A stretch of DNA of 64,000 bases from Spirochaetia bacterium (GCA_963668315.1 OY764216.1:4320001-4384000); one strand, 5' to 3'; numbered from the stretch's first letter, positions 572 through 42,212 are shown. Notes: generated by a model from the letters alone, not told the origin. Numbers and translations: made by a program.

Positions 572-1906
572 CTAAATAATACTAAAACCCATTCCCATTA
601 TATGTTTTATTAGCAATATGGTTGCAAGAATTAAAACTAACAGGATTGTGCTTTTCATATCCTGAAGGATTAAGCCCTGCTTTTCTTTTTTTAAGCCAAT
701 ATTGATTATTACATATAATGGGATATCATTTAGTGCTACGGCAATAATAGCACCAAAAACATTCCCAAAATAGTAGGCGATCGGCAATACGGTAACCATA
801 TAGGCGAATTTAACTATGTTTCCAGCTGCCAGCCAGTGGGGCTTGCCGATAGTCAGTAAACTACGGTCTATGGACATCACTAATAAGCGAGGCCAGATTC
901 CCAAAGCGAGAATAGGCAGCATCCAGGCGGCTTCAGAATAACGGTCATCATAAAGGAAAAGAATAATGGAATGAGCCGTAACAGAAAATAAAGCCAAAGC
1001 TACGGCAGAAATATAGAGAATCATCATTCGTGGTTTTTCTATCCTTGCCTTGATCTGCTCGTAAGGAATATTTGAGATTACAGGGAAAACCACTTTAGCG
1101 CTTATATATTCGACAACACTTTTAGGAAACTCGGAAAACATCAAAGCGATATTATAAACACCGAATAATCCGACCCCCAGAAATCGGCCCAGCAATATTC
1201 TATCGGCTTGGGAAGCCAAATAACTCATGGCCGTAGAAAACATTATCCATTTTCCAAAGGACAGAAGTTCCCTAGCCGCTTCTTTTTCAAGAAATAACCT
1301 ATTCTGGAATGTATTTATCCGATGACTCCAGGCTGTTAAAAGAACAGCATTTAGACAGTATGGAATAATTAAAGCCCAAATACTCCTTGTATAATAGGCA
1401 AAAATTATCATTATGGAAGTACCTATTAATTGAAAGAGAATCTCGGCGCTGACTTTTTTTCTCTGATTTAAATTTTTCTCTAATAAATCCAGAGATGTGG
1501 AATTCAAACCTTGAACAATGGAGAAAAGCCCGAATATGGGCAAGATTTTCATAAGAATGGGAACTTTATAAATAACCGATACAGGATAGGCTATAATAAT
1601 AGAGAGTAAACATAAACCAATACTTCTCAAGAATTGAATAGTCCATGCAGTATTAAGAAAATCCTGATCATTCGATCGTTTGCTTCTTATAATACTTGGT
1701 CCCATACCCAGATCTGAGAGTAAAAAAATCCCTCTCTGAAAAACAAGAGCAATAGCAATAATTCCAAAATATTCCGGAAAGAGCAGCCTTGTAAGTATAA
1801 CATTTGAAACAAGACGAATTAATTGACTGAATCCATATCCCAATATGACGAAGAAAGAAGCACTAATTATTTTTTTTTTCATTTTTACCTGTGAATAATC
1901 CATCAA
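572..1906 (-). CDS. wzx: Wzx-type oligosaccharide flippase
   Basis: Polytopic membrane protein with LTRLLFPEYFG, DLGMGPSIIR, SFGKW and DRILLGRFLG..GVYNIA motifs of polysaccharide export flippases. Confidence 0.85.
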   Translation of the reverse strand: MMDYSQVKMKKKIISASFFVILGYGFSQLIRLVSNVILTRLLFPEYFGIIAIALVFQRGIFLLSDLGMGPSIIRSKRSNDQDFLNTAWTIQFLRSIGLCLLSIIIAYPVSVIYKVPILMKILPIFGLFSIVQGLNSTSLDLLEKNLNQRKKVSAEILFQLIGTSIMIIFAYYTRSIWALIIPYCLNAVLLTAWSHRINTFQNRLFLEKEAARELLSFGKWIMFSTAMSYLASQADRILLGRFLGVGLFGVYNIALMFSEFPKSVVEYISAKVVFPVISNIPYEQIKARIEKPRMMILYISAVALALFSVTAHSIILFLYDDRYSEAAWMLPILALGIWPRLLVMSIDRSLLTIGKPHWLAAGNIVKFAYMVTVLPIAYYFGNVFGAIIAVALNDIPLYVIINIGLKKEKQGLILQDMKSTILLVLILATILLIKHIMGMGFSII

Positions 1907-1932
1907 ATACCTGCTCCTATTTTAAAAATAAA

Positions 1933-2508
1933 CTACATTTCAACCTTCACCTGTCTTGCGGGAACTCCAAAGAGCGTTGCCCCAGCTGGATAACTTCTAA
2001 CAACAACAGAATTTGCACCAATCACAGTATCATCCCCCACGGTTACAGGTCCTAATATACAGGCCCCGCATCCTATATCCACCCGATTCCCGATGATAGG
2101 GCCTCTGACCTCCTTCTCGGCATCCTCTTTCCGTACTAGTCCCATAGTAGTGTTATGTCTCATATGAACATCATCTCCTATGGAAATAGCCCCGGCTATA
2201 ATTATATTACCATGGTGCCAGATCCTCACACGACGTCCCAGCTTTACCGTATAGGGCAAATCGATACCCCAGAAATTAAGAATTAGAGAATGGGCCAAGT
2301 TATATAGTATAGTAAAAGGAATTCGGAAGATCTTTTTCTTAATACCCATCCTCCAGTTTCCGAACCGATTACATCGAACGGCCAGATAACCCGGTTCAAA
2401 GCGATGATTATCATAGGTTTGCAGATCTTCTTTTTTCAGTGCAAAATACCCTATATCGGTCGGATTCTGATTTTCTGTTCCTTTTTTTCTTTTTAAGCCT
2501 TTTTCCAT
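1933..2508 (-). CDS. Serine acetyltransferase-like hexapeptide O-acyltransferase (WcaB-like)
   Basis: GIDLP..VKLG..VRIWHHG, PIIGNRVDIGCGACILG, IGANSVVV and GVPAR hexapeptide repeats; EPS context. Confidence 0.85.
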   Translation of the reverse strand: MEKGLKRKKGTENQNPTDIGYFALKKEDLQTYDNHRFEPGYLAVRCNRFGNWRMGIKKKIFRIPFTILYNLAHSLILNFWGIDLPYTVKLGRRVRIWHHGNIIIAGAISIGDDVHMRHNTTMGLVRKEDAEKEVRGPIIGNRVDIGCGACILGPVTVGDDTVIGANSVVVRSYPAGATLFGVPARQVKVEM

Positions 2509-2526
2509 GTAATATCTTCCTGTTTT

Positions 2527-3312
2527 TTATTTTATTCCATTAAGAAATTTTATAAATTCTCCGGCGATAACACGTCGGCCTAATTCATTAAGATGCCCCC
2601 CATCTTCCGTATAACCGGAAAATAGATAATAATACTCCTTTCCTCTGTAAAAAGCATGAGATCTCTTCCCGTCAGGTTCAGTCGACTCCCACATGGCCAG
2701 ATCAAAAATAGGATCAATACCTGCATAGACACTGCGAAGTTCTTTATTATATAACTCCCTTTTCACATTGGCGCTGGTGTCCCAGAGTTCCTTACCGACA
2801 ATCTTCTTAATAAAGGGTTTAAGACCTCTTTCTTCTTGAGTGACAGGAACCGTTAGATGAACTAACGTCAGATCAGGATAATTCTCCTTTAATCCCTCAA
2901 TCAGATTTTTATATTCAATAAAGAGGGATTCCACATCGGTATCCTTATTGATATCAACAAAACAGAATTTAAAAAAAGCAATATCAATCTTATCGCCCAG
3001 AGCATTATGGGAGAGAGTTTCCTGAAAGGAACGCATCTTACTAAGGGGATCTTTATTAACTCCAACACTTGCGTGCATGAGACAACCCCTGTTTTCAGGA
3101 ATATCCCCGGAATTAACAATGTTGATCCCGAGAGAGCTGTAATTTTCCATAATGCCCTCGATGATATTTTGTCCCACAGAATGGTGTCCAAAGAAGATTC
3201 TTTTACTTATCATTATATCTGCATCAATCTCCCCCACAAAAACCTCCTCTGATCCTCTCCGACAACCACTAAAACATATAAAGCACAACAAAAAGAAAAT
3301 AACATTCTTCAT
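2527..3312 (-). CDS. Lipoprotein, SGNH-hydrolase-like family
   Basis: Lipobox FSGC; FFGHHSVGQNI (Ser block) and DGGHLN (DxxH) near the C-terminus. Confidence 0.6.
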   Translation of the reverse strand: MKNVIFFLLCFICFSGCRRGSEEVFVGEIDADIMISKRIFFGHHSVGQNIIEGIMENYSSLGINIVNSGDIPENRGCLMHASVGVNKDPLSKMRSFQETLSHNALGDKIDIAFFKFCFVDINKDTDVESLFIEYKNLIEGLKENYPDLTLVHLTVPVTQEERGLKPFIKKIVGKELWDTSANVKRELYNKELRSVYAGIDPIFDLAMWESTEPDGKRSHAFYRGKEYYYLFSGYTEDGGHLNELGRRVIAGEFIKFLNGIK

Positions 3313-3333
3313 ACGCTCAGCCTTTCCTCTTCC

Positions 3334-4326
3334 TTACGAATGATGAAGTCCAACAGGAGTAAGCCTTTTATATCTTCTGTTCAGAAGAGAGCTCATCTGC
3401 AATTTAATAATGGTATAATTATAGATAACTGTTTTTTTCTTCCGCTTCCAGAAAAAAACGTTTTTCAGACAGATAAGGCCGGACAATAGAATTTCAGAAA
3501 AAGAATCAATTAACATTTTACTCAAACCATAATTCTTCCAATAATACTTCTGCTCACTCTCAATTCGGATGTTAATTAATTGTTTTCCCGACTCACTCAT
3601 CATTTCTCCCTTTGTCTTACTGCTTTCTCCACAGAGATGCAGTACAGAAGCATAGGGATAATAAACCGTTTTCCAACCCGCTTTTTTGGCTCGCAAACAG
3701 AAATCCGTTTCTTCATAATAAAGAAAATACCTATCATCAAGCATACCAATATCATCAATTAATTGTGAATTGATGAGAAAAAAAGCGCCGGGAACCCAGT
3801 CTACTTCTTTAACACTTTTATGATCCCACCAGCTATACGTAGGCCCCCCCAGGAGCTTTGACTGGGGAAATTTTGCAGAGATCCCAGATAAGGCTTTAAT
3901 TTTATAATAGGAACTGGGGAACTGACGGGCCGAGGGTTGGAAACTTCCATCTTTATTCAGCAACTGAACTCCCAGAACACCGCATTCCCTATTGTGCTCC
4001 ATATAATCAATAGTTTTTACTAAAGCATCCTCATTAAGAAAAGCATCAGAATTCAGGAGTAAAACATAGTGACTGTGCGATCTTTTTATCGCGTTATTAT
4101 TAGCTGCGGCAAATCCTGAATTTCTGGCATTTCTAATTAGGCAGTACTCAGGAAATTCCTTTTTAACAATCTGAACAGAATCATCATGGGAATTATTATC
4201 CACAACAAAAACATCTGTCTCAATATTTTCAATAGAATGGGAAACCGCTTCCAGACACTTTCTTAAAAGATCTCCCGTATTGTAACTGACAATAATAATG
4301 GAAAGCGTCTTTTTTTTATCCATCAT
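3334..4326 (-). CDS. Glycosyltransferase family 2
   Basis: SIIIVSYN, VVDNNSHD, NSGFAAANN, LLLNSDA, VDWVPGA and YYEETDFC motifs. Start placed at ATG 4326 (ATGA overlap with the asnB stop, AAGGGG upstream). Confidence 0.92.
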   Translation of the reverse strand: MMDKKKTLSIIIVSYNTGDLLRKCLEAVSHSIENIETDVFVVDNNSHDDSVQIVKKEFPEYCLIRNARNSGFAAANNNAIKRSHSHYVLLLNSDAFLNEDALVKTIDYMEHNRECGVLGVQLLNKDGSFQPSARQFPSSYYKIKALSGISAKFPQSKLLGGPTYSWWDHKSVKEVDWVPGAFFLINSQLIDDIGMLDDRYFLYYEETDFCLRAKKAGWKTVYYPYASVLHLCGESSKTKGEMMSESGKQLINIRIESEQKYYWKNYGLSKMLIDSFSEILLSGLICLKNVFFWKRKKKTVIYNYTIIKLQMSSLLNRRYKRLTPVGLHHS

Positions 4327-6323
4327 ATCCCCTTGGTATGGCAATAATCAAAACTGTTTTCTCGAACTCCTCGACAGGATGTACTAAAAGAATTTTCCAG
4401 TATAAAGCTCTTGAAGACTAGCATTGTCGATATAAAAAAGAGGATTCTAGTGTTGTCAGCAAAAGATAAAGATAGTTCCGTATTCCTTGTCTTATTAAAA
4501 AGCCCTTCTATAACCTGGAAGTTAAAGATTTCCGATTTTTCAATCAGCTCTTTCTGAAGAATTTCTTCCAGCCAAGAAAGCTTCTCAACCTGGGAGAGAA
4601 AACTTACTCCATTAGGAGATTGATATGGCTGTTTGGGTCGTTTTAGAATATCTTCAGGAATTTCATTTATAAAAGCCTCTTTTAAAATATGTTTCTCATC
4701 CAGATCACACCCATGTAGTTTGTAATCCGTATTCAATCCATTGGCAAATTCATCGAATTCCACATCCAGAAAAGGGAATCTTCCTTCTACGGAATTGGCC
4801 ATGAGCATACGGTCGCCCTGAGCAGACAGGATATAGCCAGGCAATAATGTATTATACTCCAGCCACTGAGCTTTTTGCAGATAGGTCCAGTTATCCTTTT
4901 CCCTGGGCATTCTCTCTAAAAGAGGGTTAATTATCTCATTTTTCTTAAAATAGTCCATCGCTTCACTCGTAAACAGAGGCAATAACAATTTAGCATTATC
5001 CCACCGAGGCCTATGGGAAAGACCGTTATCACCGGTGATCAGATTTTTACTGAAAAAAGATCTCGTAAATGCCGGGGTTTTATGGAATTTATCCCCCATC
5101 CAAGGATAGAGATGGGAAAGCAGCTCTTCCGTTTCAGTAGAGCGGCCCTCAAGAATAACCTTATTTCGGATATAGGCTTCGCGGAAAATATCATAACCGC
5201 CCAGAACCTCATCAGCCCCTTCTCCAGTTACAACAACCTTATATCCCGAATCGCGAACCAGTTTAGAGAGAAGAAAAAGCGGAGCGGGTGCCGTTCTAAG
5301 AATAGGCCTTTCTGCGTTAAGCATGACCTGAGGAAAAACCTCGGCAATATCGGAATAATCAACAGAAAGCGTCCGGTGATCCGATCCAAGACGCTCCACC
5401 ATCTCTTTCTGAAAATATCCTTCATCAAATTGTGCATCGGAAAATCTTATAGAAAAAGTTTTTAGTCCTTCATGGGCGTACTTTTTAACAATGGCGGAAG
5501 AAACAGAAGAGTCGATACCGCCAGAGAGATAAGCTCCCACAGGAACGTCACTCCGTTCAAATCTTAACCGGGCAGCTTTGTGCAATTTTTCCCTTAACTC
5601 CTCGGTCTTCTCGATGAAATCCTTTTTACTGATAGGAACATGACCATCGGAAAACTCAATATTCCAAAATGTCTTGGCCCTTAACTGCTTACCGTCATAG
5701 ACTGCTAATGAACCGGGTGGAAGTTCATATATACGGGAAAAGGCCGTATTCGGAGCGACTGGTCCCCAGAAAGTAAAAATCTCCTGAAGTCCGGTCAGAG
5801 AAAACTCCCGGGAAACCGACTCATCGGTAAAAAGAGCCTTTATCTCCGAAGCAAAAAGAAAATTGTCCTTTGTCTCTGTGTAATAGAGGGGTCTGATTCC
5901 GTGCCTATCCCGGCTAAGAATAAGTTTATTTCTACGGCGGTCCCAAAGTGCGATAGCCCATTGACCGTTAAACTTTTGAAAGCATCCTTCTCCCCAGCTT
6001 TCCCAAGAATGAACTATAACTTCCGTATCACTTTCTGTTTTAAAAATATGACCGAGAGAAACGAGCTCCTCCCTGAGTTCAATATAGTTATAGATCTCCC
6101 CGTTAAAACTAATCCATAAAGACTCATCTTCGTTACAGAGAGGCTGAGTCCCTCCGGCGAGATCAATAATGGAAAGACGGGCATGCCCCAGAGCGGCCTT
6201 TTCATCCCGGAACCACCCCCTGCCATCCGGCCCGCGATGATACAAGCGATCCAGCATTCCTCTTACGAGTTCCTTATCGGGGATATTCCCCCGTTTACTT
6301 ACCAAACCGCATATCCCACACAT
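4323..6323 (-). CDS. asnB: Asparagine synthase-like glutamine amidotransferase, EPS-associated
   Basis: N-terminal MCGICG (Ntn Cys), HRGPDG, RLSIID, FNGEIYN, YLSGGIDSS, GEGADE and EGRFPFLD. Confidence 0.93.
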   Translation of the reverse strand: MCGICGLVSKRGNIPDKELVRGMLDRLYHRGPDGRGWFRDEKAALGHARLSIIDLAGGTQPLCNEDESLWISFNGEIYNYIELREELVSLGHIFKTESDTEVIVHSWESWGEGCFQKFNGQWAIALWDRRRNKLILSRDRHGIRPLYYTETKDNFLFASEIKALFTDESVSREFSLTGLQEIFTFWGPVAPNTAFSRIYELPPGSLAVYDGKQLRAKTFWNIEFSDGHVPISKKDFIEKTEELREKLHKAARLRFERSDVPVGAYLSGGIDSSVSSAIVKKYAHEGLKTFSIRFSDAQFDEGYFQKEMVERLGSDHRTLSVDYSDIAEVFPQVMLNAERPILRTAPAPLFLLSKLVRDSGYKVVVTGEGADEVLGGYDIFREAYIRNKVILEGRSTETEELLSHLYPWMGDKFHKTPAFTRSFFSKNLITGDNGLSHRPRWDNAKLLLPLFTSEAMDYFKKNEIINPLLERMPREKDNWTYLQKAQWLEYNTLLPGYILSAQGDRMLMANSVEGRFPFLDVEFDEFANGLNTDYKLHGCDLDEKHILKEAFINEIPEDILKRPKQPYQSPNGVSFLSQVEKLSWLEEILQKELIEKSEIFNFQVIEGLFNKTRNTELSLSFADNTRILFFISTMLVFKSFILENSFSTSCRGVRENSFDYCHTKGI

Positions 6324-6344
6324 CTATTCACTCCCTCGTTCCAA

Positions 6345-7445
6345 TCAAATTTTTAAAAATTGAAGAAATCTTGCCAGAGGATCCTTCAAGTAATCAAAGA
6401 AAGGACTATCGGTCAATTTTACATCCATCATATACCGATTATCTTTAATCCTTCTTTTCACCAGAGAAACATAACCGGAAAGAGTACAATAATAGCCGGT
6501 GTGTTTTTTCTTGTCGTTTATTTCACCGGTTAATATATCATCACAGCAAATGACAGGGAAATTCACACCAATATGATAGGAACCTAATAGACTGCCCCAA
6601 AACCTCGGATTTATCTCAAGAATAAAGTACTCCCCTGTCTTCTCGTTATATCTAATATCAATATGAGCGACTCCCTGCCAATTTAAATTCATCATCAATT
6701 TCTGAACGACATCAAATAAGGTGCTGTCATCTATAAACTGGATAATCTTTGATGGAGTAAAATCATATTTATCTTTCTGTATTAACTCTTTCTGAATCGT
6801 ATATTGAAGGATTTTCCCGTCAACACAATAGACAGAAACCCCCAGATTATACCCGGGAACAAATTCCTGAAGGATTAATGGGTTTATCTCCTGGTTAAAT
6901 GTCTTTGTATATTGAAGAAAAGTTTCCTTATCCTCACAAAATTTAATACCATGGCCTCCCCCTCCAAAGGAGGGTTTTATGATAAGGGGAAAATTAACTC
7001 TTTCAAGATGACTGATTAAATCATCATCAACACAAATGGTATGAGGATGGGGTAGATTGTTTTCCCGAAGGAAATAACATATTTTCTTTTTATTATTGGC
7101 AAGTTCATAGATCTCTTTTGTCGGCAACCTTATAGTTTTTATACCCGCTTCTGATATCTTTTTTTTATGACAGATTAATAAATGGAACATATTGATATTA
7201 ACGGGAAGAATAAAGGGTATACTATTCTGTTTACAAATACTTATTATTCTATCCATTAATTCCGGGGATGGCTCCAAAGAGATCCTCCAGAAAGCCGATA
7301 CCCATCGGGAAAACTTAACAGAATAGCTATCATTATGACAAATAACATGTAAAGTAAATTTATTAGTTTTTCCCAGACAGTAGAGTACCTGCAGTATAAG
7401 CTGAGTCGGCGCAGTTCCCCCCAAAATCAATATTTTCACTCTCAC
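6345..7445 (-). CDS. ATP-grasp domain protein
   Basis: FPLIIKPSFGGGGHGI, ILQEFVPG and LEINPRFWGS; GTG start with GGAGGT Shine-Dalgarno. Confidence 0.88.
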   Translation of the reverse strand: MRVKILILGGTAPTQLILQVLYCLGKTNKFTLHVICHNDSYSVKFSRWVSAFWRISLEPSPELMDRIISICKQNSIPFILPVNINMFHLLICHKKKISEAGIKTIRLPTKEIYELANNKKKICYFLRENNLPHPHTICVDDDLISHLERVNFPLIIKPSFGGGGHGIKFCEDKETFLQYTKTFNQEINPLILQEFVPGYNLGVSVYCVDGKILQYTIQKELIQKDKYDFTPSKIIQFIDDSTLFDVVQKLMMNLNWQGVAHIDIRYNEKTGEYFILEINPRFWGSLLGSYHIGVNFPVICCDDILTGEINDKKKHTGYYCTLSGYVSLVKRRIKDNRYMMDVKLTDSPFFDYLKDPLARFLQFLKI

Positions 7446-7527
7446 ATCTACCTCCCGAAAAGAGATATGTTCCTGCTATTTATATATTAAATTCTAAGTC
7501 CAAGAGTAATAACGGGATATAAAAACA

Positions 7528-7794
7528 TTATTCCTTTTTTAAAATAAAAGCTGTAAGATTATTCAAAGAATCCAGGTTTTCTGGGACAAGCTCATTATCT
7601 TCGATAGTTATGTTGTAGCTATCTTCGCAGAACTCTATCAATTCCAGAATCCCCAGAGAATCTATGATTCCATTCTCCATAAAAGACTCTTCGGGTTTAA
7701 CCATTGCGTCTTCATTACCAAAAAGGTAATTCTGGATAACAAAACTTCTCAACTGATTATGCAAAGTATCTTTTGATTCTGCGATGCTCATCAC
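7528..7794 (-). CDS. Acyl carrier protein
   Basis: 88-aa acidic protein with GIIDSLGILEL phosphopantetheine site and ELVPENLDS C-terminal motif. Confidence 0.92.
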   Translation of the reverse strand: MMSIAESKDTLHNQLRSFVIQNYLFGNEDAMVKPEESFMENGIIDSLGILELIEFCEDSYNITIEDNELVPENLDSLNNLTAFILKKE

Positions 7795-7924
7795 ACTCTC
7801 CTTATTTCTTTAAATTAATTCTAGTTTCTCCCCATAATAATTACAAATTATAAATTGAATTTGTGTTTTTCACTGGCTTCGCTTAAATTTCATATATAAA
7901 GTTTATTATTGAAAGGGGAAGAAT

Positions 7925-8908
7925 ATGATAAAGAACGATTCCTATTCATTGGATACTCTGAAGTTAAACTGGGAAGAAGAAGCCGATCGCATATGCCGAA
8001 CGATCACTGAAAAGATGACATCAGACTTTAAAAGAAAAGGCCTAGTTGTTGCCATGTCCGGCGGTATAGACAGCAGCACCGTAGCCGGCCTCGCAGTAAG
8101 GGCATTAGGCAAAGATAGAGTTGTCGGACTTCTTATGCCGGAGAAACACTCTTCCAGTGAAACCCTTGGTTTAAGCCAGAGCGTTGCCGATGCCTTTGGC
8201 ATTGAAACAGTCTATGAAGATATATCCGATATTCTCGAAGCTCTGGGCTGCTATAGAAGACAGAACGAAGCGGTCAAGCAGATCATTCCCGAATTCGATG
8301 AAAACTGGAAATTCAAAATAGTTCTCCCAAACGTCATAGAAGGAGGAACTCTGAGAGTCTATAAAGTCATAGCCCAGTCACCGGAGGGTGATACAATAGA
8401 AAAAAGACTCCCTACGGCCTCTTATATGGGCATAGTCGCTGCGACGAATTTCAAACAGAGGGTGAGGAAGATGCTGGAATACTTCCATGCGGATAGATTG
8501 AATTTTGCTGTAGCCGGAACGCCGAACAGACAGGAGTATGATCAGGGATTCTTCGTAAAACTGGGAGACGGCGCAGCCGACATCAAACCGATTGCCCATC
8601 TCTACAAAACACAGGTATATAAAATGGCGGCTTTCCTGGGTGTACCAGATGATATATTGAACCGTCCTCCCACAACCGATACCTACTCACTTTCCCAGGG
8701 ACAGGACGAATTCTACTTTTCTCTCCCCTACGATAAAATGGATCTCTGCCTATTCGGTCTCAATAACAATATTCCTGTTGACGAGGTAGCCTCAGCAACG
8801 GGAATCACAGTAGAACAGGTAAAGATGGTCTATGGTGACATTGAGCAGAAAAGAAGAACCACTAGGTATCTTCATCTTGCTCCCCAATTGGTGGATGATT
8901 TTTTTTAG
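7925..8908 (+). CDS. nadE: NH3-dependent NAD synthetase-like ATP pyrophosphatase, EPS-cluster type
   Basis: VVAMSGGIDSS PP-loop, NFKQRVRK, GTPNRQE, GFFVKLGDG, PIAHLYKTQV and PPTTD. Confidence 0.8.
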   Translation: MIKNDSYSLDTLKLNWEEEADRICRTITEKMTSDFKRKGLVVAMSGGIDSSTVAGLAVRALGKDRVVGLLMPEKHSSSETLGLSQSVADAFGIETVYEDISDILEALGCYRRQNEAVKQIIPEFDENWKFKIVLPNVIEGGTLRVYKVIAQSPEGDTIEKRLPTASYMGIVAATNFKQRVRKMLEYFHADRLNFAVAGTPNRQEYDQGFFVKLGDGAADIKPIAHLYKTQVYKMAAFLGVPDDILNRPPTTDTYSLSQGQDEFYFSLPYDKMDLCLFGLNNNIPVDEVASATGITVEQVKMVYGDIEQKRRTTRYLHLAPQLVDDFF

Positions 8909-10428
8909 ACGGAAGCAAGCTGGATTTTCATGATTTTCCCCGACTCATTTTTCGGGAGTTTATCCAGAAAAATGATCTGTTGGGGAACTTTATAGGAAGC
9001 TAACCTATTCTTTAAATGTCTTTTCACTTCCTCTTCGCAGAGAGTAACTCCATCTTTAATAACAATAAATGCAACTGCAATCTCCCCCATCATTTCATCC
9101 TTTTTAGCTATCACCGCAGTTTCATGAACTTCATTCAGTTCAAGAATTTTCTCCTCAATCTCCTTGGCACTGACGCGGAACCCTTTAATTTTTAAAATAT
9201 CCTTGCTTCTTCCCGTAATAAAGATAAAACCTTCTTCATCCCGATACCCCAGATCCCCGGTAAAATAAAATCCTTTCCTCAATACACTTGCAGTACTTTC
9301 TGGATCCTTCCAATATCCCTTCATAATATTGGAACCTCGTGCGGCTATCTCCCCGTTCTCTCCTTGAGCCACTTCATGGCCCTCCTCATCGGCAATAATC
9401 AAATCTACATTATCCACGGGCGTTCCAATAGACCCCCATTTACTTTCTAGCAACTCCGGTTCCAGGTAGGAAAGACGAGGGGCCGCTTCAGTGGCTCCAT
9501 ACATAACATAAAGAACGGCCGGAGCAAACTGTTTGACTACTTCCTTCTGGACAGCGGGAGCCATTGCACCACCCGCCTGAGTCACATAACGTAAGGAGGG
9601 AAGCTCACAACTGAACAAATTGGATTTATTGAGTAATATGGAAAAAGTTGATGGAACACCAGCAAATCCTGTCACCCCGGTTTCTGCCATCGTTTCAAGG
9701 ACCTTATTGGGATACATAAAACGGTTATCTATAACAACTTGCCCCCCCACAAGAAAATGCGTCAGGAGCAGAGATTTACCATATATATAATAAAAAGGAA
9801 GAACTACCATCACTTTGTCCTCTTCCGTTAAATGAAGGTAAGAAGCAATCGACCTCATGTTGGAAACCAGGTTCAGATGCGTCAGCATAACCCCCTTAGG
9901 TTCTCCCGTCGAACCGGATGTATAAACTATTTCAGCCAGATCTATATCGATACCCCTCACAGGGGAAGGTTCTGAACCATAAGTTGAAAGTACATCAGAG
10001 TAAATACTTAACTCTCCTTCAGGGAATGAATCATTCTCTAAATCTCTATCAACCATTAAGTATTTAAGCTGAGAACAGGTTGATAGCATATCCTTTAGCT
10101 TACGGAACGTTTTAGCCTGTGTGATGAATACATTCGCATCGGAATTCTCTATCTGGTAGTGCAGAACAGCAGAACTGAGAAGCGGATTCATTGCGACAGC
10201 CACACCACCAGCCTTTAATATCCCAAAGTACACAGAAAGATGATAAAAGGAGTTATCAATAAGAAAGGCAACTCGGTCACCTCTCTTTATCCTACCCGTT
10301 AACCAGTTAGCAAGAGAATTGGCAGTTTCATTCAATTCCCTGTAGGTTAATGTTTCCCTATTATGCCAGACCGCTGTCCTGTCCGGTACATCTATAGCCT
10401 TTCTTTCCAATAATTCCTGTACTTGCAT
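8905..10428 (-). CDS. AMP-forming acyl/aminoacyl ligase (class I adenylate-forming enzyme)
   Basis: YTSGSTGEPKGV, YGATEA, FTGDLG, GRSKDILKIKG and LPKNESGK. Confidence 0.93.
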   Translation of the reverse strand: MQVQELLERKAIDVPDRTAVWHNRETLTYRELNETANSLANWLTGRIKRGDRVAFLIDNSFYHLSVYFGILKAGGVAVAMNPLLSSAVLHYQIENSDANVFITQAKTFRKLKDMLSTCSQLKYLMVDRDLENDSFPEGELSIYSDVLSTYGSEPSPVRGIDIDLAEIVYTSGSTGEPKGVMLTHLNLVSNMRSIASYLHLTEEDKVMVVLPFYYIYGKSLLLTHFLVGGQVVIDNRFMYPNKVLETMAETGVTGFAGVPSTFSILLNKSNLFSCELPSLRYVTQAGGAMAPAVQKEVVKQFAPAVLYVMYGATEAAPRLSYLEPELLESKWGSIGTPVDNVDLIIADEEGHEVAQGENGEIAARGSNIMKGYWKDPESTASVLRKGFYFTGDLGYRDEEGFIFITGRSKDILKIKGFRVSAKEIEEKILELNEVHETAVIAKKDEMMGEIAVAFIVIKDGVTLCEEEVKRHLKNRLASYKVPQQIIFLDKLPKNESGKIMKIQLASV

Positions 10429-10618
10429 TTTCTCACCCCTATAATAGATATATAATCTATTGAAATATATTTTTCAAATTATTAAGGAAGAAAGGCTATG
10501 ATAAAGTTATAGCTTTAATTTACAATAAATAATAATAGAAATTGTACATTAGATTTCCCTCTTTTATATTTCATTATTTCTTCTAATAGTGTTAGAATTA
10601 TATAAGGGTTATTTTATT

Positions 10619-12265
10619 ATGAGATTCACTCTTCTTTTTTTTTCAACGATAATATTTTACTCATGTATCTCTATAGAAAGCGTGACGATTCAGCAAACCG
10701 AAGATATAGGATGGACAGCATATGAACCGTCTCAAGACAGTAGAGTCATCTATGTGAGCTCTTCCACGGGAAACGATAAAAATGACGGTTTAACAGAAAC
10801 ATCGCCGGTAAAGACCATTGTCCGGGGGGCGGAGCTTGTAAGGGACGGAGAAAATGATTTCCTTCTCCTTCACAGAGGGGATACCTGGCGAGATGAATCC
10901 CTTTACCGGTTCAAATCCGGTAAGGATGCCGCTCATCCTCTGGTAATCGCATCCTATGGAACATCGGACAAACTGCCGCGCATAGAATTGGATGGTTATT
11001 TCATTAATCATAATGGTAAAGCCAGGAATTACGTAGCGATAATGGATCTTGAGTTCGTCTATTACCCGAAAGTTCCGACGGATCCGGAATTCAGCGGTAC
11101 GGGAAAAGGTGGTCTGCGTTATGTAGGCGGTGGTACGGAATTCCTGATCGAAGGCTGCCGCTTTACCTATTGCGAATTGATCATTCAATCCTACGGAGGT
11201 TACCATTACGATAAAGTAACCATCCGGAGGAATGTGATTGAGAAGAGTTACCATCGGGACACGTCAAACCGAAATTCATCCCATAGACCCTCCGGACTAT
11301 ATGCCCACCATGTGGATAATCTCCTTATAGAAGAAAATGTGTTCGACCATAACGGATGGAATGAAGATGTGGAAACGGCGGATGCTTCCATGTTCAATCA
11401 TAATATGTACCTTAGCGAATGTGACAGTCTGATTGTTCGTAAAAACATTATTACCCGAGCCTCTAGCATGGGAATAAAACTTCGCTCCGATGGTACGGAC
11501 GGTTCAAAGGGAACCGTTATTTCCGATAATGTTATCGCCGATGGAGAGATCGGTCTGAGTATAGGAGGCAACAGTCATGAATCCCGAAGGTTTGAAGATG
11601 TTCTCATCAAAGGAAATGTTTTTTCCCAGATCGGCCTCAGTAATCCCACTAATCGAAACTTCTCCTGGTATTTGGATGTCCAGGATAATGCCCAGACAAT
11701 GATAAGGGATAACTACTTTCTAAACCAGCCCTGGTATGACAACAGTTTTGGCATCATTATGCAGGGAGACTCACAGCAGGGCGTTACTATTTTGAATAAT
11801 ATGTTCTATGGAATACGCCGTCAGTCCCTCTATATGCAATTGGGAAGGGATTGGTCGGACATATCCATATCGGCTAACACCTTCATAAGTCCCGATTTCA
11901 GTTTCCCTCTGGTTTATGTGCGTGACGGAGCGGTGGAAAGCATCAGTTTTTCTGACAACCGTTATTTCTCCATCGACAGCAGCAATATGTTTACAACACG
12001 CAACACCGGTCATAATGATGAACATCCGACGATGCGTAGTTTGGACGAGTGGATGGCGATCTCCGGAGAAAATGGAGGAAAACGCACTAATCCGGATTAC
12101 AGAGATCCCGAAAGGACGTTGGGCAGCTATGCCGGAACTTTGGGCCTCGAATCCAATATGCTCGCCTTTATTGAAGAAGCCCGCCTCCAGAATCGTTTGA
12201 ACTGGCGCGTTGAGTATACGGCCGCTAGGATAAAAGAGTATATTATTAATGGGTTTACGGAATAG
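10619..12265 (+). CDS. Lipoprotein with right-handed parallel beta-helix (pectate-lyase-like fold)
   Basis: Lipobox-like FYSC; YVSSSTGNDKNDG...SPVKTI and LLLHRGDTW N-terminal motifs; repeated I..N.F Asn-ladder turns. Start moved to ATG 10619. Confidence 0.75.
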   Translation: MRFTLLFFSTIIFYSCISIESVTIQQTEDIGWTAYEPSQDSRVIYVSSSTGNDKNDGLTETSPVKTIVRGAELVRDGENDFLLLHRGDTWRDESLYRFKSGKDAAHPLVIASYGTSDKLPRIELDGYFINHNGKARNYVAIMDLEFVYYPKVPTDPEFSGTGKGGLRYVGGGTEFLIEGCRFTYCELIIQSYGGYHYDKVTIRRNVIEKSYHRDTSNRNSSHRPSGLYAHHVDNLLIEENVFDHNGWNEDVETADASMFNHNMYLSECDSLIVRKNIITRASSMGIKLRSDGTDGSKGTVISDNVIADGEIGLSIGGNSHESRRFEDVLIKGNVFSQIGLSNPTNRNFSWYLDVQDNAQTMIRDNYFLNQPWYDNSFGIIMQGDSQQGVTILNNMFYGIRRQSLYMQLGRDWSDISISANTFISPDFSFPLVYVRDGAVESISFSDNRYFSIDSSNMFTTRNTGHNDEHPTMRSLDEWMAISGENGGKRTNPDYRDPERTLGSYAGTLGLESNMLAFIEEARLQNRLNWRVEYTAARIKEYIINGFTE

Positions 12266-12387
12266 ATTTTAATTCTTGTTAATTTTTCCAATTATAAAGG
12301 CACCAATGTTTTTTTATACAGATTTAAGGTATATTAAACATAATATAATTATTTTATTGTATCCTCTTGTTTACCGGAGATTAAAAA

Positions 12388-14013
12388 GTGTTATTTCAAT
12401 CAAAATCTTTTCACTATATTGAAAAGGTCCTTCTATTTATTCTAATAATGTCCTTTTCCAGTTGTGAAGGCTTAGCTGATAAGTTCAGCTCAGAAGTCAT
12501 TAATGTTACAGGAATTACAGTTACTCCTGAAGAAAGTATATTAACCGTTGGAGATACGGCACAAATTTCTTCAATAATATCCCCGGAAAACGCCACATTC
12601 CCTGAGGTAACCTGGACAACTTCAGATACAGCTATCGTCACAGTCGATACCAATGGAAAAGTAACCGCCTTAACAGCAGGGGCGGCCACAATTACAGTTA
12701 CCACTGAAGACGGAAATTTCTCGGCTGAATCAAAGATTACCGTTGTCAGAGCGACTATTCCTGTGACAGGCGTATCAGTAACACCTCCAACAAAAAACCT
12801 GACCGAAGGAGACTCTGCTCAATTTACAGCTGCCATTTCTCCTTCTGATGCGACAAATACCAATGTTAGCTGGACGACATCTAATTCGGCTATCGTCACA
12901 GTCGATACCAATGGAAAAGTTACCGCCTTAACAGCCGGTTCAGCCACAATTATTGTCACCACCGAAGACGGGGATTTCATGGCTGAATCTATTATTACAG
13001 TCAATGAGAGCCAAGCTGATCTTTGTATCGTCTCCTTAAATACGATGGGAGGTTCTACTCTCGATGAAATTTCGGCTCAAGTAAACGATCTACTTAATGA
13101 ACCGATAGAACCAACAAAGGCAAATTTTATTTTTGACGGATGGTATAAAAGCGACTATTACTATGAGGAATGGGATTTTGATAATGATAGAGTAATTGAC
13201 GATATGATACTCTACGCCAGATGGACAGAAACCTTCGACAGCTCTGGGAAACCGACCCTAGACAGTACAGCTCTCACCTATAACGAGGATTCATCAAAAA
13301 CCTATAAAGTTCAGGAACCCTGGAATTACTATAAAACATATAATGCGGATCGTGAATATCCACTTGTGATAGCACTACACGGATGGACATCCCTGCTAAA
13401 CCATTATTATGCCCCCGTTATTCTAAACGATGATGAAGAGGCTCAGGAATATCCTTGTTTTTATCTGGCCCCGAATCATGGTGGTTATGGTTCATGGAGC
13501 GAAACAGATGGAGACATCCAATGGATACGGGATCTAATCGAAGAGCTCATATCCGAATACAGGATAGATACAAACCGTATCTATATCATCGGCTTCTCCA
13601 TGGGCGGTTCCGGCTCTTATTACTTTGCAGAGGAACTCTATGCAGATAAAGGTCTTATGACTGCTGGAATCATACGCTGCGCCGGTGCTTCGAATTCCGA
13701 TCTACCCGAAGAAATGGCAAAAAAGATCGGTGTCTGGTACAACTACGGCTTAAGCGATAGCTCTGATATTCTCACTGTAGCGGAAAATGCCTTCGATTTC
13801 ATAAAAGGCCTTTCCTGTTATACCGATGCATCTGAAACAATTGTAGAAGATACAATGGGCGGTTATGACAGAACGACATCTATATTGAATATGGATGGCA
13901 TCGAGTTCTTCAGATTTAGTCAGTATACAGGTATGGGCCATTCATCCACCCCAGTATGGCAAGACCCAGACTTACTTAAATGGTTGTTCTATCAATCACT
14001 GGAAAAATGGTAA
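12388..14013 (+). CDS. Lipoprotein: 2x bacterial Ig-like (Big_2) + InlB B-repeat + alpha/beta-hydrolase esterase
   Basis: FSSC lipobox; two VTG.TV...WTTS..AIVTVD..G.VTA repeats; PTKANFIFDGWY...WDF...LYARW; YPLVIALHG, RIYIIGFSMGG and GMGH. Confidence 0.85.
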   Translation: MLFQSKSFHYIEKVLLFILIMSFSSCEGLADKFSSEVINVTGITVTPEESILTVGDTAQISSIISPENATFPEVTWTTSDTAIVTVDTNGKVTALTAGAATITVTTEDGNFSAESKITVVRATIPVTGVSVTPPTKNLTEGDSAQFTAAISPSDATNTNVSWTTSNSAIVTVDTNGKVTALTAGSATIIVTTEDGDFMAESIITVNESQADLCIVSLNTMGGSTLDEISAQVNDLLNEPIEPTKANFIFDGWYKSDYYYEEWDFDNDRVIDDMILYARWTETFDSSGKPTLDSTALTYNEDSSKTYKVQEPWNYYKTYNADREYPLVIALHGWTSLLNHYYAPVILNDDEEAQEYPCFYLAPNHGGYGSWSETDGDIQWIRDLIEELISEYRIDTNRIYIIGFSMGGSGSYYFAEELYADKGLMTAGIIRCAGASNSDLPEEMAKKIGVWYNYGLSDSSDILTVAENAFDFIKGLSCYTDASETIVEDTMGGYDRTTSILNMDGIEFFRFSQYTGMGHSSTPVWQDPDLLKWLFYQSLEKW

Positions 14014-14800
14014 TTGACAAAATAACCAATATTCAAAAAATGGGAGAGATTGAGGTTTATTTTTTCTTTCTCTCCCAATAATATTCCCATGGTTAGCATC
14101 TATAAGAATAACATATTCAATGGGATTATTATGTAATTTCATCTGCATAAAAAAGGCATTGGATTCCTCTAAAGTTGTTATCTGGTCTTTTTCAGAATGA
14201 ACTAATAGACAAGGCGGATAATTTGCAGAAACATGATGAAGAGGAGAGAAGTCAAACGAGTCATTCATTAAAAGATCGGCACCAAAACCGGTCTCTGTCG
14301 TATTGAGAACAGGATTAAACAGGGCAACTCCGCAGGGCTTCTTTTTGAAAAGAATAGACCTGCCAGCGCCCCAGAAGGCCATATGTACCCCTCCACCGAC
14401 AAGAAAGATCTTATCCTCATCAATCCTATAAGATTCTGAATGCTCTCTGACCCAAAAATAGGCACCATAACAATCTTCCAGAGACTCCCGGGGAGATGCG
14501 CTATTACGGTTAGCCAATCGGTACTGTACCCCCAAACAGAAAAGCCCTCTTGAGAGCAATAGGAACAATACCTATGAAATTCCATTGGAGTTCCATACTG
14601 CCATGCCCCCCATGGTAGAAAGTCAAAGCAGCGTCCTTCTTCACTTCCTCTCTTGCAGGATAAATATATAAGTTTAGACTTTCCTCATTAATTAGCTTGT
14701 ATCTAACCTTCTCATAATGGAAATATTCAGAACAACAGTTAAGAAGAAGGATCTCTAAAAAGAGGATTCCTATAAATTTACCAACTTTACTTAATCTCAT
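13996..14800 (-). pseudogene. Frameshifted alpha/beta-hydrolase (HGGxW-type carboxylesterase)
   Basis: Three consecutive frames give LYIYP..TFYHGG | AWQYGTPMEFHRYCSY | SRGLFCLGVQYRL. Shifts lie at the C6 run 14606-14611 and near 14559. The nucleophile elbow reads GGGVH and lacks Ser. Confidence 0.75.
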
Positions 14801-15890
14801 TCCTATCGGGCTTCCAATTCAGCAAACGCCTCTCCACAATCTGTTGAATGACAATATCCGGTTTATATTCATCAACAAAATCGCTGTCAAAATTATCGGA
14901 CCTGATAAAAACGGCTTCTTTAAAATGTTCGGCCAGAAGAGGAATCAGGGCTACACCGAAAGAGTCATGGAAGATAAGGGCTTTACCGAGTTCACCGGAA
15001 TCATTCTTTGTATGGAGCCGGCCGACATGTTGCACGTCTATCATTTGTAAATCAATCTTGTCACCGTTAAACAGGGTGGCATGGGGTTCTGAATTGACAT
15101 GATAAAGATTATCGTGCAAAGAATCATCAAGCCCCATGAGCCTAGCTAAATCTCCCCCGTTTACTCCTTCGATTATTACATCAGGCTCCCTATCCCCTGG
15201 ACGTATTTGAGGATAGTTCCGGCGCAAGGAATCAAGAATGGCAAGATAGGCATAGTAGGCTCCTAATTCATTCCAATGAGTATCTGTTTTGTAATAGAGC
15301 GGATAAGACCCTTTACTGCAAATTAAAGAATCGAACACATTAATATAATCTATTCCCCACTCCCCCATCAGATTTTCCAGGCTATCCCTTCTGGAAAGAT
15401 CGCTAACCGGTTCATAAAACTTGTCCGGCAGGAATTCGGGATAAATATTAGACTTGTCCGGACTGATGGTAAAGTAGTAGGAACACCCCAGTTCCCTACA
15501 GAAATCATTCCGAAATTGAAGGACATCTTTCCACAACCGAACGTCATCATCGGTGAATCCATAGATATTCCTGTGATTGTCCAATGCTTTCTCATCGGCG
15601 AGAAAAAGCCATCCCTCCATACCCATGAGGACTTTCTGTGATGATGAAATATGAAACAGCTTTGTTTTAATTAAACCATTTATTTTTATGAGCCGGTCAC
15701 GAAAAGCATAATTCTCGCCGTAGGTATATTTTGCTTTACCAATCCTATGAATTAAATCGATGAGGTTTATCGTATTATGCTCTTCTATCCTGACTTTTCC
15801 CTCTCCTACTAGCCCGATAAGGGGAAGCAGTAAAAGGAAAAGAAAAATCAGGGAAAGGGCAATCTCTATTTTTTTTATTATATTCATCAT
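14787..15890 (-). CDS. AlgJ/AlgX-like polysaccharide O-acyltransferase
   Basis: N-terminal anchor; GMEGWLFL, SPDKSNIYPEFLP, YYKTDTHWN (DxH), GDLARLMG and HDSFG. Confidence 0.88.
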   Translation of the reverse strand: MMNIIKKIEIALSLIFLFLLLLPLIGLVGEGKVRIEEHNTINLIDLIHRIGKAKYTYGENYAFRDRLIKINGLIKTKLFHISSSQKVLMGMEGWLFLADEKALDNHRNIYGFTDDDVRLWKDVLQFRNDFCRELGCSYYFTISPDKSNIYPEFLPDKFYEPVSDLSRRDSLENLMGEWGIDYINVFDSLICSKGSYPLYYKTDTHWNELGAYYAYLAILDSLRRNYPQIRPGDREPDVIIEGVNGGDLARLMGLDDSLHDNLYHVNSEPHATLFNGDKIDLQMIDVQHVGRLHTKNDSGELGKALIFHDSFGVALIPLLAEHFKEAVFIRSDNFDSDFVDEYKPDIVIQQIVERRLLNWKPDRNEIK

Positions 15891-15898
15891 AATTAAAC

Positions 15899-17341: not shown

Positions 17342-17545
17342 ATATTTATCCTGCCTTTTTTTTATATTTTATTATAATGCATAATTCTTAAAATTGCGTA
17401 GAATTGAACTAACTGTTCTTTATCTTTTTCTATAATTTAAATATATTTTCTTTTTCTCAACAAAGGTATAATCATTTTCATATGGGTTACATCTTAACCG
17501 AACACTGAAAAAGAATTGCATAAAATGTTTTCCTAGGAGAAAGAA

Positions 17546-42072: not shown

Positions 42073-42212
42073 AGCGTCTTCCTTTATCCGGCAGTTAACC
42101 GGCCTTCAAATTCCATAATAATATCCTTTCGCCCGATTGTCCAATAAAAGCCTTATATTAGGTCAAAAAAATTCCGATTATGAAGATAAGATTTCTCAGG
42201 AGCGTCATAACG

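Follow-up and report, generated by a model that had tools for sequence, protein, structure and literature searches.

A four-gene carrier-protein cassette with AsnB-type and NadE-like partners in a spirochaetal polysaccharide locus and in other bacteria

INTRODUCTION

The non-carbohydrate substituents of bacterial surface glycans largely set their charge, their antigenicity and their sensitivity to phages and enzymes, and only a few of the enzymes responsible for adding them have been identified. Here we describe a set of four genes, encoding an AMP-ligase, a stand-alone acyl carrier protein (ACP), an AsnB-type amidotransferase and a protein related to the NAD synthetase NadE, that lies among polysaccharide genes of a Spirochaetia bacterium. 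The stretch of DNA analysed, which we call the window, comprises 64 000 nucleotides (GCA_963668315.1 OY764216.1:4320001-4384000). An earlier note, made from this sequence alone, had proposed a five-gene module for the decoration of an extracellular polysaccharide (EPS), with an ATP-grasp ligase as the fifth partner. A listing of open reading frames (ORFs) together with Pfam and NCBIfam scans confirmed all five genes and their positions. The four-gene cassette recurs in many unrelated genomes and in metagenomes, linked across lineages.

Carrier-protein-dependent tailoring of glycans is already known. The Dlt system (DltA, DltC, DltB and DltD) employs a stand-alone adenylating ligase and a small carrier in the service of a cell-surface polymer, and is not known to include an amidotransferase. 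In Vibrio cholerae O1 an ACP (RfbK) and an AMP-ligase (RfbL) lie with their partners in the O-antigen locus, where this tetronate module yields a non-acetyl acyl substituent for the N-acylation of perosamine; the partners are of the dehydrogenase and reductase types and are not known to include amidotransferases, and we compare the module with our cassette by gene content. The XrtA/PEP-CTERM systems contribute the families TIGR03098 and TIGR03108, the nearest named families of the ligase and the AsnB-type protein of the window (400 and 401 bits, respectively). Craig et al. are said to have linked N-acyl amino acid synthases to PEP-CTERM systems in 2011, and this may bear on the canonical XrtA ligase. 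A further parallel is found in butirosin biosynthesis, where we take BtrJ to be an ATP-grasp enzyme. According to PMC11350588, in the pathway of BtrI (the ACP), BtrJ and BtrK an acid is activated and ligated to the stand-alone ACP by BtrJ, modified while tethered, and then attached to a sugar. The AsnB-type amidotransferases OxyD and LlpA are held to act on a dicarboxylate bound as a thioester, whose free carboxylate they amidate to give a malonamate starter unit (PMC6164072).

The present locus has something in common with each of these systems. The likeness to DltA and DltC drawn in the earlier note stands in generic terms, and a member of the MBOAT family and an SGNH-like protein are encoded in the same island of the window. 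However, the ACP reaches only 20.4 bits with the DltC model NF003464 (cutoff 68), the ligase lacks an acidic residue at the FD position of non-ribosomal peptide synthetases (NRPS), the MBOAT gene (160 bits, cutoff 375) lies 5.5 kb from the ligase and is absent from all 20 of the long cassette loci defined below, and the cassette has two obligatory amidotransferase partners. As in the butirosin pathway described above, tailoring would take place on the carrier before attachment to a sugar, but the cassette has no pyridoxal phosphate-dependent decarboxylase, its modifiers are of the AsnB and NadE types, and the group would be transferred to a repeat unit of a polysaccharide and not to an aminoglycoside. 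OxyD and LlpA, AsnB homologues on a carrier-bound acid, are compared at the shared level of the AsnB family only; theirs is a type II polyketide setting, in which neither a NadE-like partner nor glycan genes take part. Finally, the NadE-like protein shares the SGGIDS motif and C-terminal core of ammonia-dependent NadE, yet it has an insertion of ~65 aa, is an extra copy in its genome and is genomically tied to the ligase, ACP and AsnB. Literature searches on polysaccharide cassettes with ACP, amidotransferase or NAD synthetase found no description of the four-gene set, which with its obligatory NadE-type partner appears to be undescribed.

RESULTS

Four genes that travel together

An earlier set of loci had been anchored on the ATP-grasp gene, and a search anchored on the NadE-like gene alone was therefore run. 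It gave 80 metagenome loci at 55–69% identity, of which 20 have at least 5 kb on each side and are called long loci. AsnB is found in 19 of these 20, the ACP and the ligase in 19 each, and the ATP-grasp gene in none of the 80 (Table 1). The cassette usually spans ~5 kb, and the order of its genes is permuted in many ways from locus to locus. Clustering by BLAST of 565 ORFs from 33 loci gave only six recurrent families: AsnB in 31 loci, the ligase in 29, the NadE-like protein in 27 and the ACP in 21, followed by the SGNH-like lipoprotein (13) and the hexapeptide acyltransferase (8), with every further family in at most four loci. Six loci, around matches to NF002048, came from genomes that share the family or class of the window's. 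All six have the NadE-like gene, five have AsnB, and a strong ligase match, a strong ACP match and the SGNH-like gene are each present in four; neither ATP-grasp nor MBOAT occurs in any of them. In Steroidobacteraceae the order AsnB–ACP–ligase–NadE-like is contiguous on a single strand.

The clustering of AsnB, ACP, ligase and NadE-like genes is not due to chance. On the strength of the locus counts and the 33-locus clustering we define the core as a four-gene cassette with two recurrent accessories, the SGNH-like lipoprotein and the hexapeptide acyltransferase. Thus four of the five genes of the originally proposed module do belong together, but the fifth, encoding the ATP-grasp ligase, does not. 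Some loci have duplicates of cassette genes: one metagenome locus (L111) has two NadE-like genes, at 5301–6347 and 10001–10996, and another (L120) has two tandem ligases, at 6773–8407 and 8417–9979.

The ligase and its XrtA-type paralogues

Core motifs A3, A5, A7, A8 and A10 of the ligase are invariant, and L210, P211 and G217 do not vary among 28 cassette ligases. In NRPS adenylation domains the Asp of the A4 'FD' motif binds the α-amino group of the substrate. When both A-domains of LgrA are aligned with the window ligase, their FD motif falls on Y214-I215 or Y216-G217, and residues 208–222 include nothing acidic. Since the Asp falls on Ile215 or Gly217 with no acidic residue nearby, an α-amino acid is an unlikely substrate, and the aminoacyl unit that the earlier note had offered beside an acyl unit is disfavoured.

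The ligase lies below the cutoffs of both TIGR03098 (cutoff 592 bits) and PRK06187 (408 bits, cutoff 476), as does AsnB below that of TIGR03108 (cutoff 817 bits). True TIGR03098 ligases, scoring 656 and 629 bits, are encoded in two cassette-bearing proteobacterial genomes (G041 and G042), 20–30 kb from the cassette. That of Steroidobacter flavus has a DltB-like MBOAT gene and a 318-aa ORF as neighbours, with no AsnB, ACP or NadE-like gene alongside, and this locus points to a Dlt-like acylation system as the home of the exosortase-associated acyl-CoA ligase. The ligase, MBOAT and 318-aa genes occupy 9117–13131 (−) of the locus (L198, G041:C15:427000-446900), and a second pair of MBOAT and 318-aa genes is found at 15514–17875.

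In a maximum-likelihood tree the canonical XrtA ligases form a clade (support 100/99), joined by three ligases of the ATP-grasp-anchored loci. The cassette ligases fall into two supported groups (98/95 and 99/97), with the XrtA clade placed weakly between them (80/51), so that our claim is limited to their separation from the canonical XrtA ligases. A single clade of cassette ligases was marginally rejected, the forced topology costing 17.7 lnL with a p-AU of 0.036, values that two long-branch rows may affect. Judged by these comparisons, the cassette ligase is classed as a paralogue of the TIGR03098 ligase and not as a member of that family. The resemblance to exosortase-associated loci that had been remarked upon thus survives only as paralogy: both window proteins score below the family cutoffs, the genome of the window (96.95% complete) contains no match to the exosortase family PF09721, and the canonical TIGR03098 ligase is a separate gene in cassette-bearing genomes.

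The carrier protein, AsnB and the NadE-like enzyme

The 88-aa protein has the size expected of an ACP and a serine in the DSxG context, by which features we identify it as one. Of 21 homologues, 20 retain the serine to which phosphopantetheine would be attached, and the motif PENLDS at the C-terminus is likewise conserved. The protein scores below cutoff with the PP-binding model of Pfam (18.8 bits, cutoff 20.8) and with the AmcB-type (46 bits) and OlsHI-type (44 bits) ACP models of NCBIfam.

AsnB begins MCGICG and has the PP-loop SGGIDS; Cys2 and SGGxDS are conserved in its homologues, and together with the TIGR01536 score these place it by sequence in the AsnB superfamily. Its genomic linkage to the ACP and ligase argues for a substrate other than aspartate.

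The NadE-like protein also has a PP-loop SGGIDS, and its ~65-aa insertion relative to the solved structures of ammonia-dependent NadE is conserved. It is 50–68% identical to the cassette copies of other lineages. The genome of the window encodes a second NadE elsewhere, of the glutamine type, in a 683-aa ORF, and the NadE-like protein is an extra paralogue and not the sole NAD synthetase. The distribution of its family is patchy. Proteins above the cutoff of NF002048 occur in 7 of 41 related genomes, comprising that of the window, all four of one sister genus and genomes of two other families, and in none of three genomes of the window's own genus; one of 14 control genomes has such a protein. 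All clusters of the NadE-like protein in the protein atlas bear automatic names as NAD synthetase family proteins. Because members of NF002048 are nearly always tied to homologues of the ligase, ACP and AsnB, systematic misannotation is probable, and for most members the family name 'NAD(+) synthase' is probably wrong.

The glycan setting of the cassette

In the window the genes for ACP, ATP-grasp, AsnB, GT2 glycosyltransferase, lipoprotein, hexapeptide acyltransferase and Wzx follow one another on the minus strand with the ACP gene first, and because the gaps are only −22 to 82 bp we regard them as one operon. The contiguity with GT2, acyltransferase and Wzx that the earlier note had described is borne out, these minus-strand genes having gaps of −22 to 26 bp. 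That note had overlooked the strand of the NadE-like gene, the gene for the 261-aa lipoprotein and a pair of MBOAT and AlgX/DHHW-like genes. The NadE-like gene is on the plus strand; it diverges from the ACP operon and converges on the ligase gene, which it overlaps by 4 bp. The intergenic region between the ACP and NadE-like genes contains weak σ70-like matches at 7809–7838 (+) and 7846–7818 (−), no more than chance predicts.

Elsewhere the cassette keeps similar company. Loci of relatives contain Wzx, glycosyltransferases, pyruvyl transferase, UDP-sugar dehydrogenase, AT3 and PIG-L genes, and the cassette of Steroidobacter flavus lies in an XrtA-type EPS locus with an XrtA-associated FemAB gene. 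The long loci were searched with single-sequence markers (UGDH, DegT, GT4, AT3, pyruvyl transferase, PIG-L, FemAB, GNAT, sugar transferase, O-antigen ligase, LDH and a thiamine pyrophosphate (TPP) enzyme). In this crude search, which misses divergent homologues, 12 of the 20 have a glycan marker. Given that in the window the cassette sits in a Wzx-dependent glycan operon, the earlier suggestion of a carrier-protein-dependent, non-acetyl decoration is a reasonable reading.

In the locus of one relative (L106) genes for a TPP-dependent enzyme (2959–4674, +) and a member of the lactate/malate dehydrogenase family (9220–10173, +) stand amid the cassette genes. They are a possible sign that the unit loaded is a 2-hydroxy or 2-oxo acid. 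Neither the TPP enzyme nor LDH was seen with the single-sequence markers in the 20 long loci.

The two recurrent accessories

The 261-aa lipoprotein has no Pfam match at 1e-3, a faint match to GDSL_2 (E = 0.019) being under threshold. Its family has at least 273 homologues, nearly all unnamed. Throughout 44 sequences S45, G84-x-N86 and D237-x-x-H240 are invariant. A lipobox FSGC occupies residues 14–17, and the homologues mostly have a signal peptide or lipobox, apart from two Steroidobacter copies that have neither. An AlphaFold (AF2) model has a pLDDT of 92.3 and gives 78 PDB matches in Foldseek at E ≤ 0.001. The top ones, with a probability of 1.00 and TM scores of ~0.5–0.6, are the peptidoglycan O-acetyltransferase PatB, a GDSL esterase of Campylobacter jejuni, sialate and Ape-type O-acetylesterases and acetyl-xylan esterases. 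The model and the invariant residues, read as the block I Ser, block III Gly-x-Asn and block V Asp-x-x-His, place the protein in the SGNH/GDSL superfamily, and it is predicted to be an extracytoplasmic glycan O-acyl esterase or transferase. The hexapeptide acyltransferase is a candidate for the cytoplasmic transferase of the ACP-borne group.

The ATP-grasp gene and the MBOAT/AlgX-like pair

The closest relative of the ATP-grasp protein among 5.8 billion proteins is 34% identical, and a genome scan with the single sequence found no relative. A scan with an alignment-based profile gave 80 genomic loci with relatives at 23–33% identity. These loci contain the ligase in 13 cases, Wzx in 10, AsnB in nine, the ACP in eight, GT2 in seven, the NadE-like gene in five, MBOAT and the hexapeptide acyltransferase in four each and the lipoprotein in two. 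The five with a NadE-like gene come from Steroidobacteraceae or other Pseudomonadota and have strong matches to the cassette, which in three of them is contiguous on one strand in the order AsnB–ACP–ligase–NadE-like. In the window the GC content of the ATP-grasp gene (0.349) resembles that of the GT2 and Wzx genes; AsnB, NadE-like and ligase genes lie at 0.42–0.45. Because none of the 80 NadE-like-anchored loci and none of the six relatives' loci has an ATP-grasp gene, we regard it as a local insertion.

In three flavobacterial loci (L016, L020 and L022) genes for a ligase and an MBOAT are close to that of an ATP-grasp relative, and in the two that were annotated (L016 and L020) a carrier protein adjoins the ligase. 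The arrangement in Mariniflexile ostreae (L016, 10001–15413, +) comprises, in this order on one strand, ATP-grasp, AMP-ligase, a 79-aa PP-binding carrier, MBOAT and a 310-aa ORF. It is a Dlt-like operon that has at its head the closest relatives found in genomes for the ATP-grasp of the window. Since both the cassette and the ligase–MBOAT arrangement occur, two carrier-type systems coexist in such loci. The window itself has the cassette together with pieces like those of the other carrier system (ATP-grasp, MBOAT and AlgX-like genes), with one ligase and one ACP within 20 kb. The MBOAT and AlgX-like pair is probably a separate O-acylation unit of the AlgI/AlgJ type. As an exporter for the cassette it was considered and found to be unsupported, MBOAT being absent from the 20 long loci and the six relatives' loci alike.

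The window and its surroundings

The coordinates of the features are collected in Table 1.

Table 1. Features of the window, with the number of NadE-like-anchored loci in which each gene is found
Feature	Position (strand)	Length	Profile match	All loci (of 80)	Long loci (of 20)	Remarks
Wzx/MOP flippase	572–1906 (−)		PF13440, 161 bits	6	5	closes the minus-strand operon, 26 bp past the acyltransferase gene
Hexapeptide (CysE/WcaB-like) acyltransferase	1933–2508 (−)		PF00132; NF041874, 93 bits, under cutoff	11	7	recurrent accessory
Lipoprotein, predicted SGNH fold	2527–3312 (−)	261 aa		13	6	between GT2 and acyltransferase; recurrent accessory
GT2 glycosyltransferase	3334–4344 (−)		PF00535, 83.8 bits	5	3	start overlaps AsnB stop by 22 bp
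AsnB-type glutamine-dependent amidotransferase	4323–6323 (−)	666 aa	TIGR01536, 479 bits (cutoff 267)	55	19	core cassette
ATP-grasp ligase (COG3919-like)	6345–7445 (−)	366 aa	PF02655, 59.5 bits (cutoff 23.2)	0	0	between ACP and AsnB
Stand-alone ACP, divergent family	7528–7794 (−)	88 aa		45	19	core cassette; DSLG serine motif
ACP–NadE-like divergent intergenic region	7795–7924	130 bp				presumed promoters
NadE-like PP-loop ATP pyrophosphatase	7925–8908 (+)	327 aa	NF002048, 499 bits (cutoff 313)			core cassette; anchor of the loci
ANL-superfamily acyl-AMP ligase	8905–10428 (−)	507 aa	PF00501, 277 bits	44	19	core cassette; predicted to load the ACP
AlgX/DHHW-like SGNH protein	14787–15890 (−)		PF16822, 63 bits	0	0	
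DltB-like MBOAT	15899–17341 (−)		PF03062, 102 bits; TIGR04091, 160 bits, under cutoff 375	1	0	8 bp from AlgX/DHHW-like gene

The guanine + cytosine (GC) content is ~0.40 in the first 20 kb of the window and ~0.53 in the remainder. The start of the window is part of a low-GC region of ~85 kb in a genome of 5.62 Mb with a GC content of 0.513, and this island looks like a mosaic assembled by insertion sequences. No LpxC was found in the genome.

A second glycan locus lies in the 20 kb to the left of the window (L009, 4300001–4320000). It includes a stand-alone NRPS module of 1064 aa with the domains C-A-T (11133–14327, −), which is another carrier-protein enzyme within a polysaccharide locus of the same genome. 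Its neighbours encode a 436-aa Asn_synthase-like protein, two Wzx proteins, a second full AsnB (646 aa), two GT4 enzymes, a hexapeptide transferase and a GT61 enzyme. The next 20 kb (L010, 4280001–4300000) have a gene for an 880-aa adenylation and PP-binding protein (665–3307, −), many transposase genes of the Mutator family and rve type, some of them truncated, an RgpF-like gene and an AT3 acyltransferase gene. Within the window, a 190-aa α/β-hydrolase fragment with partial matches to BD-FAE and Peptidase_S9 (13996–14568, −), possibly a truncated gene, overlaps by 18 bp the end of a gene for a protein with Big_2 and esterase domains (12388–14013, +). Further on, a 918-aa ankyrin-repeat protein is encoded at 42180–44936 (+); its matches to Legionella Ank effector models of NCBIfam are far under cutoff and due to the repeats only.

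DISCUSSION

We propose that the cassette loads a non-amino carboxylic acid onto the ACP, amidates the tethered acid and passes the product to a repeat unit that is flipped by Wzx, a reading to which we give about an even chance. The catalytic motifs are intact in all four proteins (A3–A10 in the ligase, the serine of the ACP, Cys2 and the PP-loop of AsnB, and the PP-loop of the NadE-like protein). In such a pathway the ligase would join a di- or polycarboxylic, or otherwise carboxylate-bearing, non-amino acid to the ACP as a thioester, and AsnB would use glutamine to turn a free carboxylate on the tethered group into a carboxamide, as proposed for OxyD. The NadE-like enzyme may adenylate a second carboxylate, either of the acyl group or of a nucleotide-sugar acid, and amidate it with ammonia or an amine; a nucleotide-sugar acid would resemble the ancestral dinucleotide substrate. 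A transferase specific to each locus, here perhaps the hexapeptide acyltransferase, would then shift the group from the ACP to a sugar of the lipid-linked repeat unit before flipping by Wzx. After flipping, the SGNH lipoprotein might trim or reposition O-acyl groups outside the membrane. The ATP-grasp ligase, as a local addition, would contribute one further amide bond.

A number of observations weigh against this proposal. The best family matches of the ligase are long-chain fatty-acyl-CoA ligases, and this likeness counts because a plain fatty acid leaves no carboxylate for amidation. AsnB and the NadE-like enzyme are only predicted to act on the ACP, and the NadE-like protein retains much of the canonical C-terminal motif of NadE, so that it may still have NAD synthetase activity. 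No universal transferase accompanies the cassette, the hexapeptide acyltransferase being present in seven and the SGNH-like protein in six of the 20 long loci. Eight of these have no glycan marker in the single-sequence search, and one (L132) of the five annotated with Pfam has no glycan genes beyond those for beta-helix and malectin proteins. No marker for an acceptor sugar is enriched in the long loci, with UDP-sugar dehydrogenase in three and a DegT aminotransferase in two; the earlier note had named uronic-acid or amino sugars as acceptors. The linkage itself has exceptions, as one long locus (L166) has the NadE-like gene without the other cassette genes and two of the six relatives' loci (L104 and L105) have no close ligase. 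Finally, the 80 NadE-like-anchored loci are those that best match a single alignment, and there may be phylogenetic clumping among them.

The main rival to this proposal has the enzymes acting in parallel. AsnB and the NadE-like protein would make uronamides, on NDP-uronic acids or on the polymer, while the ligase and ACP would feed a Dlt-like export of acyl groups that are attached outside the membrane by the MBOAT together with the AlgX-like or SGNH proteins. AsnB homologues in O-antigen loci are indeed held to make uronamides, a UDP-sugar dehydrogenase gene adjoins AsnB in one locus (L109), and nicotinic acid adenine dinucleotide, the substrate of NadE, would on our reading resemble a nucleotide-sugar acid. 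The MBOAT and AlgX-like pair lies 4.4 kb from the ligase in the window, the canonical TIGR03098 ligase of Steroidobacter is in an operon with a DltB-like MBOAT and the 318-aa ORF, and the flavobacterial ATP-grasp relatives accompany a ligase, carrier and MBOAT. But within 10 kb of the cassette MBOAT is found in none of the long loci and in one of the 80, and UDP-sugar dehydrogenase in only three of the 20. Moreover, independent functions leave unexplained a cassette that coheres over ~5 kb through its rearrangements, even where glycan genes are few, and we consider parallel action unlikely. The product might alternatively be no glycan decoration at all, but an amide-containing lipid or small metabolite, the position in a glycan operon being incidental or only regulatory. 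The likeness of the ligase to long-chain fatty acid CoA ligases fits this, as do the best named matches of the ACP, which are to carriers of ornithine-lipid and cispentacin synthesis at 44–46 bits, below cutoff. There is also an LPG_synthase_TM gene upstream in one locus (L177), no glycosyltransferase within 10 kb in L132, and the eight long loci that gave no marker in the crude search. Yet Pfam annotation of five of these eight revealed GT4, WecG, polysaccharide deacetylase or GT61 beside the cassette in four, the ACP and AsnB genes of the window share an operon with GT2, acyltransferase and Wzx, relatives' loci have the glycan genes listed above, and the Steroidobacter locus is an XrtA-type EPS locus; a product of this kind is distinctly unlikely.

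Lower still we place the five-enzyme scheme of the earlier note, in which an obligatory ATP-grasp ligase extends an acyl or aminoacyl unit that is amidated on the ACP; we give it little chance. The ATP-grasp gene does share an operon with those of ACP and AsnB and stands between them, 82 bp from the one and 21 bp from the other, cassette genes lie within 10 kb in five of the 80 ATP-grasp-anchored loci, and BtrJ, in the butirosin account cited above, likewise activates an acid and ligates it to an ACP. Set against these are the absence of the ATP-grasp gene from the NadE-like-anchored and relatives' loci, the 34% identity of its nearest relative, a GC content that matches the GT2 and Wzx genes and not the cassette enzymes, and, contrary to an aminoacyl unit, the ligase's want of an acidic residue at the FD position. 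It is very improbable that the NadE-like protein is a mere second ammonia-dependent NAD synthetase and an accidental neighbour. Its score with NF002048 is well above the cutoff, and it retains its PP-loop and a large part of the C-terminal motif of NadE, but AsnB, ACP and ligase genes each lie beside it in 19 of 20 long loci, the family is patchy even among related genomes, the genome already has the 683-aa glutamine-type NadE, and the conserved insertion is absent from solved NadE structures.

Our analysis reduces the five genes first guessed at to a clearly bounded unit of four, with two recurrent accessories. It also sets the cassette apart from the XrtA-associated ligase, which in Steroidobacter flavus sits in a Dlt-like operon with an MBOAT gene. 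Beyond our proposal for the pathway we advance a wider claim, taken as a whole and only tentatively, since we think it more likely to fail than to hold in all its parts. On this claim NF002048/PRK00876 would be not a NAD synthetase but the fourth component of a widespread, mobile and hitherto undescribed carrier-protein pathway. The ligase would tether a polycarboxylic acid, the AsnB-type and NadE-type enzymes would turn its free carboxylates into amides, or into an amidine or nitrile, and the resulting nitrogen-rich acyl group would decorate the surface polysaccharides of bacteria in several phyla.

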